Of a DNA stretch of 64,000 nt, positions 5,365 through 10,560 are shown in pieces (within the stretch, counting starts at the first letter, position 1; each line of letters starts with the position of its first letter). Position numbers and translations under genes: made by a program. The DNA comes from Escherichia coli. Lineage in GTDB: Bacteria; Pseudomonadota; Gammaproteobacteria; Enterobacterales; Enterobacteriaceae. Under the pieces are notes generated by a model, which had not been told where the DNA came from, searched no databases, and was given only the letters and a program-made list of their open reading frames with translations. The stretch is taken from the NCBI RefSeq assembly GCF_024502345.1, contig NZ_JALDNN010000001.1; one strand, 5' to 3'.

Positions 5365-7626
5365 TTACGCCGGAATTTTGTCAATCTTAGGAATGCGTGA
5401 CCACACGCGGTGTGCTGCCATCAGCGTTAACAGTTCATCCATAAAACTACCGTCGGCGCTGTCAGCTTCCACAATCCCTTCTTCACCCTGGTCAGCGACC
5501 TTGATTGTTGCTTTAAACTTGCGCGCGTCTCCCGCCAGCGCAATCGGTTTAAGGTGTTTGTAGGCTTCCATCAGGTAGTAGTTGGCATCGCCGTTGTCAG
5601 CGATATCCGCGATATTGCCGCAAGGGACAATGACCGCATCGACCGTCAGCGAAGGCGCACCGGCAAAGGTAGCGGCTATAGGCAACACCGTACCGTCATC
5701 CGCAGTCACTTCACCCATTCGGGAGTAGAGCAGTTTGGCATGAACGCCTTTGGCCTTCAGGGCCTTAAGAATGGCCAGAAGGTCTGCCGATCTCACTTCA
5801 TCATTAAGTAAAATCGCTACCACGCGACCTTTCACATCACCGTCAGGAATGGCGTACAAACTTAAGGATGGATCCTTTTTCAGACCGTTGACGTCCGGAG
5901 GTGGGGTGATATTCAGCTGGTCGTCAGTCAGTTCGATACCGAGATTTTTCGCCACCGCCTGGGCCAGAGTGAGATCAATATGCGCCAGCTGGTCAACAAC
6001 GCGCTCACGAATATACGGACGAACGACTTTGCTTAACTCAAAACTGAAACCATCGACAATATGACGCTGCTCGAATGGCGTCTGACTTAGCCAGAACAGA
6101 CGCGGATGGGAATAATATTCGCCAAAAGATGGACTGCGCTCGCGAACTTTATTTCCTTCCACGCGTTCCTGATATGATTCAAAACCGCCGCGTTTCGGTC
6201 CCGGCGGTGTTTCGCGCGGCCAGTTATCGTTGATCGAGTTCGGTTCGTAATTCGCCGGGTTAGTGTCGATCCCCATACGATGCATGCCATCACGCTGGAA
6301 GTTGTGGTAAGGGCAGGTCGGACGGTTAATCGGAATCTCATGGAAATTCGGCCCACCAAGACGACTGATTTGTGTATCGGTATAGGAGAACAAACGTCCC
6401 TGCAACAGCGGATCGTTGGTGAAGTCCAGTCCCGGCACGATATGCCCAGGATGGAAAGCCGCCTGTTCGTTTTCAGCAAAGAAGTTATCCGGGTTGCGAT
6501 TGAGCACCATTTTGCCGACACGCTGAACGGGCACCAGTTCTTCCGGGATAAGTTTGGTTGGATCGAGAAGATCGAAGTCGAACTTGAATTCATCTTCTTC
6601 AGGAATCAACTGGAAGCCCAGTTCGTATTCCGGAAAATCGCCTGCTTCAATGGCTTCCCACAACTCGCGGCGGTGGAAGTCCGGGTCACGTCCGGTTAGT
6701 TTTTGTGCTTCATCCCAAACGAGTGAGGCTTTACCTGCCAGTGGTTTCCAGTGGAAACGTACAAACGTTGCCTTCCCTTCGGCATTAATCAGGCGGAAGG
6801 TATGAATACCAAAGCCTTCCATGGTGCGGTAACTGCGGGGGATGCCGCGATCCGACATCGCCCACATCACGTTGTGCAGAGTTTCAGGTTGCAGAGAAAC
6901 ATAATCCCAGAAAGTATCGTGGGCGCTTTGCCCTTGTGGAATTGCCCAGTGTGGTTCTGGTTTTACCGCATGAACAAAATCGGGGAATTTATGCGCATCC
7001 TGGATAAAGAAGATTGGCGTGTTATTGCCAACAAGGTCAAAAATACCCTCTTCGGTATAGAATTTGGTGGCAAAGCCACGGATATCACGCACGGTATCGG
7101 CAGAGCCAGCACCACCCTGAACAGTAGAGAACCTAACAAATACTGGGGTGATTTTGTTCGGATCTGAGAGGAAATCCGCTTTGGTGATATCGCTTAAGCT
7201 TTTATATGGCTGGAAATAACCGTGAGCTGCTGATCCACGTGCATGAACAATACGTTCCGGGATGCGCTCATGGTCAAAGTGGGTGATTTTCTCGCGCAGA
7301 ATAAAATCTTCCAGCAGCGTTGGACCACGGCTACCGGCACGCAGTGAGTTTTGATCGTCGGCGATGCGCACGCCCTGATTAGTGGTCAGCGCATAATTTT
7401 CACTGCCTTTGCGTACGTCTTCCAGAGAATTAAGTTTTTCGTTACGTGTATCAGGGGCTTTCAGGCTCCCAGGGGCGGTAGGTTGTGCACCTGGCGGTGT
7501 TGGTTCAGCCGCTGGACGATGAGATCCGTCCTCAGGTGCCAGTGAGTCCATCCCCGGTTTCGCTTCGCTGGAATCGTGTAGTGGTGACTGGTGCTGATGT
7601 GGGTTCTTTTCGTTATGTTGCGACAT
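5365..7626 (-). CDS. katE: Catalase HPII (large-subunit monofunctional catalase)
   Basis: 753-aa [32 protein letters not shown] with catalase core and C-terminal flavodoxin-like extension. Confidence 0.97.
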
Positions 7627-7829
7627 TGAACTCGTCTCCTTAATTTATTACTGAAAGGGCCGCTGTTTTGGTCAAAAAACTCTCTAACTATAGACCACCA
7701 GCCAGATCCCGCTTCGGAGACTATTCTGGAAACGGTGTTATGAAATACACGCAAAGCGGGACGTACAGGGGCTAAATCGGCTAAACTACAGTTTTTCTAA
7801 TTTTTAATATGCGTTTAGTGAAGCCAGTA

Positions 7830-8072
7830 ATGAAGAAACCGCTCCGCCAGCAAAACCGCCAGATTATTAGCTATATCCCACGCACGGAACCCGCGCCGCC
7901 AGAACATGCGATAAAGATGGATTCGTTTCGTGATGTCTGGATGCTGCGTGGCAAATATGTTGCGTTTGTACTGATGGGAGAGTCATTTCTGCGCTCACCG
8001 GCGTTTACTGTGCCTGAATCTGCCCAACGTTGGGCAAATCAGATCCGCCAGGAAGGGGAAGTGACTGAGTAA
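7830..8072 (+). CDS. cedA: Cell division modulator CedA
   Basis: 80-aa ORF from MKKPLRQQNRQIISYIP; ORF-track start 7809 is an N-terminal extension. Confidence 0.85.
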   Translation: MKKPLRQQNRQIISYIPRTEPAPPEHAIKMDSFRDVWMLRGKYVAFVLMGESFLRSPAFTVPESAQRWANQIRQEGEVTE

Positions 8073-8360
8073 GGATTACATACCTCCCGGTTTTGCCGGG
8101 AGTTACATGACCTGAAATTCTGCATTTCGTTGCTACATTCATTCAAACCACCTGTAACAAAAAGCTGCCTTTGACGAGCTATTGCTATAAATAAGTGATC
8201 TTTTTTCTTTAATTGTTCATTTATTTTAAAATGGTTAAGTTTTGCTAATCATGATGAGCTATTTTTGATAGTTCATCCTGTGGCGTCGCGCTTAAACTTA
8301 TATTGTAAGTGACTTAGATTTAAATGAGATAATAATTTTGTTAACAATATGAGGCGGGAG

Positions 8361-9165
8361 ATGTTTTCTACAAACTTAATACAGAGTAATTATGGTGATT
8401 TAAATATTAAAAGCCTGGCTTTCGAATCTTTTAAAGAAAGGCTTGAGTCTACCATGGCGGCACTCACTTTCTTTATATCAACGGGTCAATGTGACTGCGA
8501 TGAAATAGCAGAGTCGAACTTCAATCGTATGATTGCCTATATGTCTAACATTAACTATGATGCCTCAAAGCCAGGAGCGCCAGCACTTAGTTTTGATACG
8601 TATCTGCAGGACAATGTTAAATATAGAGTGATAATTAATAATCTTTATGGCAGTGAGTTTCGGATAAGAGATGTTAATGAGAATTTTGTTGGGATGGATT
8701 TTACCTGTGAATTCCGACCCGAAAAAATGACGAATTTGATCAATATAAAAAATAGGTTGGTTATTCATTATTTAAGGACTATATACTATGAAAAAAATTA
8801 TATACATCCTGCCGGGAGCATTTTTGCTGCGATTCAAAAAAAATGAGAGTCTCCTAAAGTTTCCTTCGATAATATCAATGCTTAATATCAATCTTCTTTT
8901 TAATCCACTAAATCTTCCGGGAATGGGAAGTGGTGTGCTTGAAGATATTATGAGTATTCCAGATAGTTCACTTAGAAAACGTCTCGGGTATGAGGTTTTA
9001 AGCTTCTCACTACAGGCACATTCATTGAGCCAGGAATGTATTGATAAGTTGGACATTTTTTTCGCTGACGATCTGTTTAAATATGAGTCAGTATGCATCG
9101 CCGCGATGGAACATTTAAAAAGTAAAGCAACGGCCCCTATACAAAACGGACCGTTGCCAGCATAA
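8361..9165 (+). pseudogene. ydjO: ydjO-like ORF split by a +1 frameshift (fragments 8361..8846 and 8788..9165)
   Basis: Two overlapping same-strand ORFs in frames 0 and +1; combined span 805 nt, one base more than a multiple of three; shift lies in 8788..8846, which contains A7 and A8 runs; low-GC locus. Confidence 0.6.
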
Positions 9166-9168
9166 GAA

Positions 9169-10560
9169 TTAACGGTGTGCCAGTTCGGCGTCGTCTTCGC
9201 TATCCAGAATGGCTTTATCGGTTTGCTTCAGCCACTGGCTGGTCAGCGTGCCAGCTGTCATCGAGCCACTAACGTTTAGCGCCGTACGGCCCATGTCGAT
9301 AAGCGGTTCAACGGAGATTAACAGCGCCACCAGGGTTACTGGCAGGCCCATCGCAGGCAGCACAATCAGTGCGGCGAAAGTTGCACCACCACCGACACCG
9401 GCAACGCCTGCGGAACTAACGGTAACAATACCGACCAGCGTCGCAATCCACATCGGGTCCAGCGGGTTAATGCCAACCGTAGGCGCAACCATCACCGCCA
9501 GCATTGCCGGATACAAACCGGCGCAGCCGTTCTGACCAATGGTCGCACCGAAAGAGGCGGCGAAACTGGCGATTGATTCAGGAACGCCCAGACGACGCGT
9601 TTGTGCTTCCACATTCAGTGGGATAGACGCAGCACTGGAACGGCTGGTAAAGGCAAACGTCAGCACAGGCCATACCTTACGGAAGTACTTCAGCGGACTC
9701 ACGCCATTAATGCCCAGCAGAATGCCATGCACTGCAAACATAATCAGCAGACCGAGGTAGGACGCGACAACGAAACTTCCCAGTTTGATGATGTCTTGCA
9801 GGTTAGAACCTGCAACCACTTTGGTCATTAGTGCCAGAACGCCGTAAGGGGTCAACTGCATGACCAGGCGAACTAGTTTCATCACCCAGCTTTGCAGGGT
9901 ATCGATAGCGGTTAAGACGCGTTCACCTTTCGGCGCATCATCCTTCAGCAGTTTCAGCGCAGCTACACCGAGGAATGCGGCAAAAATTACCACGCTGATA
10001 ATTGACGTCGGATTGGCTCCGGTCAGATCGGCAAACGGGTTTTTCGGGATAAAGGACAAGACCAGCTGCGGAACGCTCAGGTCAGAGACTTTACCAACAT
10101 AGTTACTTTCGATGGCGTTCAGACGTGCAGTTTCTGCACCACCCTGAACCAGACCTTCAGCCGTCAAACCAAACAGGTTGGTGACCAGCACACCGACCAG
10201 CGCCGCAATCAGCGTGGTAAACAAAAGCGTACCGATGGTCAGAAAACTGATTTTGCCTAACTGAGATGCGTTATGCAGACGGGCAACCGCGCTCAGAATA
10301 GAGGCGAAGACTAACGGCATAACGATCATTTGCAGCAGTTGAACATAGCCGTTACCAACGATGTTAAACCACTGTACAGAATCTTTAAGTACCTGGCTGT
10401 CAGAACCATAAATGGTATGCAGGGCAAGGCCAAAAACCACACCCATCACCAGACCCACCAGCACGTTTTTCGCCAGACTCCACTGTTTATGGCGGGTCTG
10501 AGCCAGCGCAAACAGCAGTACAACGAACACCACGATGTTCGCAATTAATGGAAAGTTCAT
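9169..10560 (-). CDS. tcyP: L-cystine transporter (sodium:dicarboxylate symporter family)
   Basis: 463-aa multi-pass membrane ORF; matches YdjN/TcyP. Confidence 0.93.

Follow-up and report, generated by a model that had tools for sequence, protein, structure and literature searches.

The E. coli ORFans described by Daubin and Ochman in 2004 are said to be short, AT-rich and fast-evolving genes of a narrow clade, with a dN/dS that is elevated but sub-neutral, and phage was reportedly proposed as a frequent source. Classical genomic and pathogenicity islands are characterized by deviant composition, variable presence and a position between conserved core genes, together with a size of at least 10 kb, an association with tRNA genes and a resident integrase. 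A much closer system has been described at the cedA–ydjO locus of E. coli K-12 itself. A PlatProm-based list of 'promoter islands', a class described as transcriptionally suppressed, includes the cedA–ydjO spacer as a 320-bp element at position 1811053 of MG1655 (PMC3661553 Table 1, row 1811053_320). It adjoins a gene that both Nakamura et al. and Lawrence et al. predicted to be foreign, and its H-NS binding is recorded as 'K' in the H column, from the datasets of Kahramanoglou et al. and Oshima et al. (PMC3661553). In genomic SELEX, the K-12 spacer was marked 'HNS', and the RpoD holoenzyme bound in vitro to a ydjO promoter, ATGACT-16-AATAAT (PMC3946193 Table 2). In addition, ydjO was listed, together with the convergent ydjN, among the genes upregulated in serum in an array study of an ExPEC strain (PMC4145685). 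An independent report of 2024 found YdjO in E. coli and Shigella exclusively and proposed its gene as a 'conserved signature' qPCR marker for both (PMC11057252).

Here we analyzed the same locus in a 64-kb stretch of E. coli DNA (the window). The original prediction for positions 8073–9168 was an AT-rich, probably horizontally acquired and H-NS-silenced island around ydjO, with a disrupted gene inside. The locus is identical to that of the H-NS-bound K-12 promoter island, and the two spacers are 98% identical. Compared with K-12, for which H-NS occupancy is known, the window strain carries an A-to-G change in the -35 hexamer, which reads GTGACT instead of ATGACT, and its ydjO is frameshifted (PMC3661553 for the K-12 locus). 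We consider it likely that the block at 8055–9168 is an old foreign AT-rich insertion, specific to Escherichia, that replaced a cedA/tcyP terminator of about 50 bp, that is coated by H-NS in K-12, and whose gene ydjO is dispensable and polymorphic for presence and absence.

Layout and composition of the locus

The genes of this part of the window are arranged in the order chbF–chbG, katE, cedA, ydjO, tcyP (ydjN), ydjM, hxpB (yniC), yniB and onward. Positions 8073–9168 extend from the base after the cedA stop to the base before the tcyP stop, tcyP being on the minus strand, and ydjO is the sole gene inside the block. The features are as follows.

7809–8072, plus strand: cedA, core flank, GC 0.51 (Pfam PF10729, NCBIfam NF007510)
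8055–9168: variable block (insertion haplotype) that takes in the final 18 nt of cedA, one hairpin, the AT-rich spacer and ydjO; from alignment with the empty site of Eco889 and with outgroups
8084–8102, plus strand: GC-rich hairpin CUCCCGGU-UUU-GCCGGGAG, just 3' of the cedA stop; belongs to the insertion haplotype
8105–8360: AT-rich cedA–ydjO spacer (about 260 bp), corresponding to the published K-12 promoter island with its H-NS site
8254–8273, plus strand: invariant 20-mer ATGAGCTATTTTTGATAGTT, an imperfect palindrome AGCTAT-n5-ATAGTT; candidate regulator site
8309–8336, plus strand: sigma-70 promoter-like site GTGACT-16-AATAAT (ATGACT-16-AATAAT in the K-12 allele)
8361–8846, plus strand: 5' part of ydjO, running for 161 codons up to a premature stop; start codon taken from the RefSeq annotation of L003, with translation and ORF list
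8836–8843, plus strand: A8 homopolymer, A7 in intact alleles, giving a +1 frameshift
8844–9165, plus strand: 3' part of ydjO, codons 162–267, shifted to the +1 frame with respect to the 5' part and inside the ORF 8788–9165
9126–9158, minus strand: intrinsic-terminator-like hairpin for tcyP, followed by UUUACUUUUU (9125–9116), within the last ydjO codons
9169–10560, minus strand: tcyP (ydjN), core flank, GC 0.53

The hairpin behind cedA was also detected as an inverted repeat, and the RNA fold of 8066–8125 has an energy of -19.2 kcal/mol (z = -3.5); it is terminator-like but lacks a U tract. On the minus strand, the fold of 9175–9105, which covers the terminator-like hairpin of tcyP and its U-rich tail, reaches -20.0 kcal/mol (z = -3.2). 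An Rfam search of the block yielded just a chance snoRNA match, well under the gathering score.

Compositional analysis revealed a GC content of 0.356 across 8073–9168, against 0.492 for the whole window. Within this segment the value is 0.330 for the cedA–ydjO spacer (8073–8348) and 0.365 for the ydjO body, whereas the flanking genes katE, cedA and tcyP are richer in GC, at 0.516, 0.511 and 0.530, respectively. Among all 1096-bp windows of the 64 kb, the lowest GC content (0.354) is found at start position 8075, with 0.07% of the windows equally low. The edges are sharp: in 50-bp bins, GC content falls at about 8100 and rises again at about 9150, with minima of 0.18 in the bins 8200–8249 and 8300–8349. 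The long A/T runs that had been claimed are also found, runs of at least five nucleotides occurring at 10.0 per kb in the block compared with 4.1 per kb in the window (2.5-fold). Furthermore, the GC3 of ydjO (0.336, z = -3.06) is the lowest among 44 long ORFs, and its GC1 is 0.414 (z = -2.4 against the same 44 ORFs). Judged by GC3, the codon usage of ydjO is atypical relative to the neighbouring core genes. The contrast in AT-richness with katE and tcyP was thus predicted correctly, and neither the GC content of the block nor the codon usage of its gene resembles that of the flanking core genes.

Two parts of the prediction need qualification. The TA-rich, promoter-like tracts are present, with TA steps at 88 per kb in the block and 49 per kb in the window (1.8-fold), but the number of sites does not exceed that in shuffled sequence. 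A simple scan found five sigma-70-like sites, and composition-preserving shuffles of 7600–9400 gave 4.2 ± 2.0, so any excess is due to AT content. On the left, the haplotype boundary falls at 8055 rather than 8073, which puts it within cedA, some 18 nt before its 3' end.

Elsewhere in the window, a second and larger AT-rich island is found at 16350–18750 (GC 0.36–0.41; GC3 0.38), between ydiY and thrS. The minus-strand ORF at 16736–18370 (544 aa) carries the name of a type III secretion effector, EspL1 (ShET2/EspL2 family), in the RefSeq annotation of E. coli, and about 20% of complete genomes cover just about 79% of the segment 15000–19000.

Polarity of the insertion

The block is present in 4297 of the 5426 RefSeq complete E. 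coli genomes (79%), as a single copy without paralogue, and absent from 1124–1129 of them (21%), with an intact empty site in 1124. The empty haplotype has 64 bp at the position of 8055–9168. In the empty-site strain Eco889, the gap between cedA and tcyP is 46 bp and contains a single bidirectional terminator, AAAAACACCTGTC-GGGAT-GACAGGCGTTT. An outgroup scan with one genome per species, covering Citrobacter, Salmonella, Klebsiella, Enterobacter, Kluyvera, Leclercia, Kosakonia and others, recovered 80 cedA loci. In about 70 non-Escherichia species of Enterobacteriaceae, the convergent genes cedA and tcyP are separated mostly by 50–150 bp, and no match to ydjO was found between them. The inspected outgroup loci share a bidirectional terminator of AAAAA-stem-loop-TTTTT architecture, and E. 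whittamii and two or three further Escherichia lineages also have an empty site with an outgroup-type terminator. The C-terminus of cedA follows the same division, reading QEGEVTE in haplotypes with ydjO and the outgroup-like QENEVEE (also QENEIEE) in empty ones.

Since the outgroups and the empty sites of E. coli share both the terminator and the QENE ending of cedA, the empty cedA/tcyP site is the ancestral state and the block an insertion, not the remnant of deletions elsewhere. By the same alignments, the block at 8055–9168 took the place of the old terminator and of the six final codons of cedA. It brought replacement terminators for both neighbours, namely the hairpin on the cedA side and the hairpin on the tcyP side. 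Escherichia sp. MOD1-EC7003 has undergone a later, clean internal deletion of the block; exactly the two block ends were kept, including the tcyP hairpin, because the insertion had supplied the replacement terminators. Horizontal acquisition, as originally proposed, is supported by the empty layout in the outgroup species, its retention in 1124 of the E. coli genomes and the lack of a YdjO homologue beyond Escherichia.

Alternatively, ydjO might be ancestral to the Enterobacteriaceae and have been lost in B2-like E. coli and in the other genera, its AT-richness resulting from relaxed selection and a mutational AT bias. In its favour are the MOD1-EC7003 deletion, which is clean and leaves both block ends, and the repeated decay of the gene. 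However, this scenario needs scar-free independent deletions in about 70 species of many genera, with the bidirectional terminator remade each time. Moreover, the empty sites of E. coli carry the outgroup-type terminator along with the outgroup-type cedA C-terminus, and a YdjO homologue is absent from every other genus searched. An ancestral ydjO is thus already disfavoured, and we regard it as extremely improbable.

For the insertion, a search of the block for an integrase, another mobility gene or a tRNA/tmRNA site gave none, and a repeat scan detected short chance-level repeats only, with neither direct repeats at the flanks nor inverted repeats at the termini. The block resembles classical genomic and pathogenicity islands in its deviant composition, its variable presence and its location between conserved core genes. 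Unlike those islands of 10 kb or more with their tRNA association and integrases, it measures 1.1 kb, holds one gene, lacks direct repeats as well as any tRNA, integrase or mobility gene, and is old enough for a diverged copy to exist in E. albertii.

Orphan status of ydjO

A word-indexed search of 5.8 billion proteins gave YdjO matches that were all from E. coli, at no less than 74% identity. HMMER, run exhaustively on 1.84 billion cluster representatives, returned Escherichia fragments only, plus one artefact. No match to YdjO was found among Pfam, NCBIfam, PHROGs and PADLOC models or PDB sequences. In the search for a donor, tblastn against plasmids hit just three mislabelled chromosomes, and phages and IMG/VR viral contigs gave no match; across the protein, plasmid, phage and viral-contig searches, no donor or homologue in another lineage or mobile element was found. 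As is characteristic of an ORFan, or taxonomically restricted gene, ydjO has no homologue beyond Escherichia and is a real coding sequence. It matches the ORFans of Daubin and Ochman on all points (AT-richness, dN/dS and narrow clade), and differs from their proposed phage source in that relatives in phages, plasmids and viral contigs were not found.

The artefact is a 299-aa protein (P0154) with 26% identity to YdjO at E = 1.5e-36, which was considered as a distant homologue and rejected as a product of sequencing or assembly. Its DNA, a contig of Logan SRR33321306, corresponds to E. coli cedA–ydjO with nearly all differences being A-to-G or G-to-A swaps. This artefact pollutes protein databases.

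Our searches agree with the exclusivity of the same gene reported in the marker paper (PMC11057252). In contrast to that report, the gene is not universal, being absent from the 1124–1129 genomes counted above, and E. albertii has a homologue, though a very diverged one. For a universal E. coli/Shigella qPCR marker, this means that about 21% of complete genomes are without the target. The forward-primer site of that assay, at 9006–9025 in the window, has one mismatch in the window allele (A for G).

Coding status and decay of ydjO

The gene inside the island is disrupted, as had been noted. One additional A in the A7 run, giving A8, splits ydjO of the window into 8361–8846 and a second ORF ending at 9165; the reading frame stops after 161 codons and the C-terminal 106 codons are displaced to the +1 frame. 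In the closest complete genome, which is 99.8% identical, ydjO is annotated as 'frameshifted', and 2273 sequences cluster as a truncated YdjO of 165 aa whose allele background is different. The frameshift is hence real; it has either arisen more than once or been spread by recombination. On the window's frameshifted allele, a putative ORF of 125 aa (8788–9165) begins at an ATG that follows AAGGA by about 9 nt, and it runs into the intact C-terminal third of YdjO.

Intact ydjO encodes 267 aa, and a length of exactly 804 nt is common to the five intact alleles that were compared. Across 15 allele pairs its dN/dS is 0.12–0.29, against 0.01–0.09 for katE, tcyP and ydjM. By this constant length and the dN/dS values, ydjO is a genuine protein-coding gene under weak purifying selection. 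Its losses are of several kinds. E. coli O157:H7 BB24-1 (L088, 3751–4553) carries a separate frameshift, the loss of one T in a T7 run (T7 to T6) near codon 232, and other losses comprise IS1 insertions and the near-total deletion in MOD1-EC7003. The gene is dispensable, since it is missing in 21% of genomes and has been broken independently several times (A7 to A8, T7 to T6, IS1 and deletion).

These data also bear on a local birth of the block within Escherichia, in which ydjO would be a de novo or fast-evolving native gene that arose, for example, through duplication followed by divergence or out of non-coding DNA, and AT-rich since young genes and intergenic DNA are. However, the ancestral spacer was only about 50 bp, so that 1.1 kb of new DNA needs a source, and the block occupies one place per genome and has no paralogue. 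In addition, a constant 804 nt and a dN/dS of about 0.2 even at a dS of about 0.8 are unlike a nascent ORF. We therefore find a local birth unlikely.

Age, alleles and a conserved 20-mer

In E. albertii, an AT-rich open frame (GC 0.32) with 39% identity to YdjO over 114 residues sits behind a cedA ending in QEGEVAE, and the contig ends inside the frame. A protein search for a full-length E. albertii YdjO returned a single 79-aa fragment. Given this 39%-identical copy at the same site, and the deep allele class of E. coli described below, the acquisition is ancient, and E. albertii has it too in a diverged form. About 100 nt upstream of the ydjO start, the 20-mer at 8254–8273 is identical in 10 of the 10 ydjO-positive loci including that of E. 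albertii, while the neighbouring spacer has diverged. As judged from sequence conservation, it may be the binding site of some regulator.

The block is also a diversity hotspot in E. coli, with a pi of 0.09–0.115 over 8300–8800 compared with 0.01–0.04 in the flanks. In the allele class L004 (GCA_025283635.1, 5713–6480, against window 8073–8840), ydjO is 83.6% identical and tcyP 97.9%. The divergence is limited to the spacer and codons 1–160, where dS is 0.74–0.92; for codons 161–267 it is an ordinary 0.08–0.18, and the flanking genes likewise show the usual divergence for the species. This ydjO allele is a recombinant mosaic, which implies that a very old allele was imported, the breakpoint lying close to the A7 run.

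A further reading is that the ydjO block is a long-lived balanced polymorphism, combining presence and absence with very deep allele classes. Homologous recombination via the conserved flanks would exchange alleles among Escherichia lineages, the 20-mer would mark a dedicated regulator, and YdjO would be under diversifying or frequency-dependent selection, for instance as a target of phage, colicin or host interaction. We hold this to be speculative and unlikely.

H-NS binding and expression of ydjO

Comparison with the published H-NS data, which are from K-12, places the protein on the cedA–ydjO spacer (PMC3661553, PMC3946193). The binding is documented for the orthologous K-12 DNA and would presumably extend to the window strain. 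The high-affinity H-NS motif TCGATAAATT has three sites in the block at up to two mismatches and is not notably enriched. Silencing of ydjO is probable, as deduced from the binding and from the way H-NS is known to act on AT-rich DNA. The gene is not always silent, as indicated by the RpoD promoter in vitro (PMC3946193) and the upregulation in serum (PMC4145685).

These two observations, together with the purifying selection on intact alleles and the invariant 20-mer kept in E. albertii, would suit a block that is bound by H-NS yet not functionally silenced. In that case, ydjO would be expressed conditionally under a dedicated regulator, and the occupancy by H-NS would be incidental to composition. 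Against this, the published promoter islands are described as transcriptionally suppressed (PMC3661553), and the frequent pseudogenisation and 21% absence argue for little fitness effect in most conditions. Moreover, the array signal in serum could be antisense read-through from the convergent tcyP/ydjN. Binding with no functional silencing is accordingly, in our judgement, very unlikely.

Discussion

Our analysis enables us to propose a putative history of the insertion. Initially, foreign AT-rich DNA would have displaced the ancestral intergenic terminator of cedA and tcyP. The insert contains the hairpin behind cedA, the spacer of about 260 bp, an orphan gene, ydjO, with 267 aa in its intact form, and a tcyP terminator in the 3' end of ydjO. 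Owing to its AT-rich composition, H-NS would coat the spacer and the ydjO body, polymerising on the DNA and occluding the promoter-like sites, with the result that ydjO would be largely off. The gene segregates as a presence/absence polymorphism, with weak purifying selection on intact copies and repeated inactivation of others. Several points count against a foreign insertion as the best explanation: there is no mobility signature, no donor was found and the insertion is not recent. After so long a time, amelioration toward the GC content of the host would be expected, yet that of the block is still about 0.35.

In summary, the AT-richness first described is confirmed and the original interpretation is supported with the refinements given above; the main points are already in the literature for K-12, and the locus is an ordinary, known feature. 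The block is a textbook case of small foreign AT-rich DNA in E. coli, with nothing conceptually new. If the reading as a balanced polymorphism were true, the ydjO block would be more than decaying junk.
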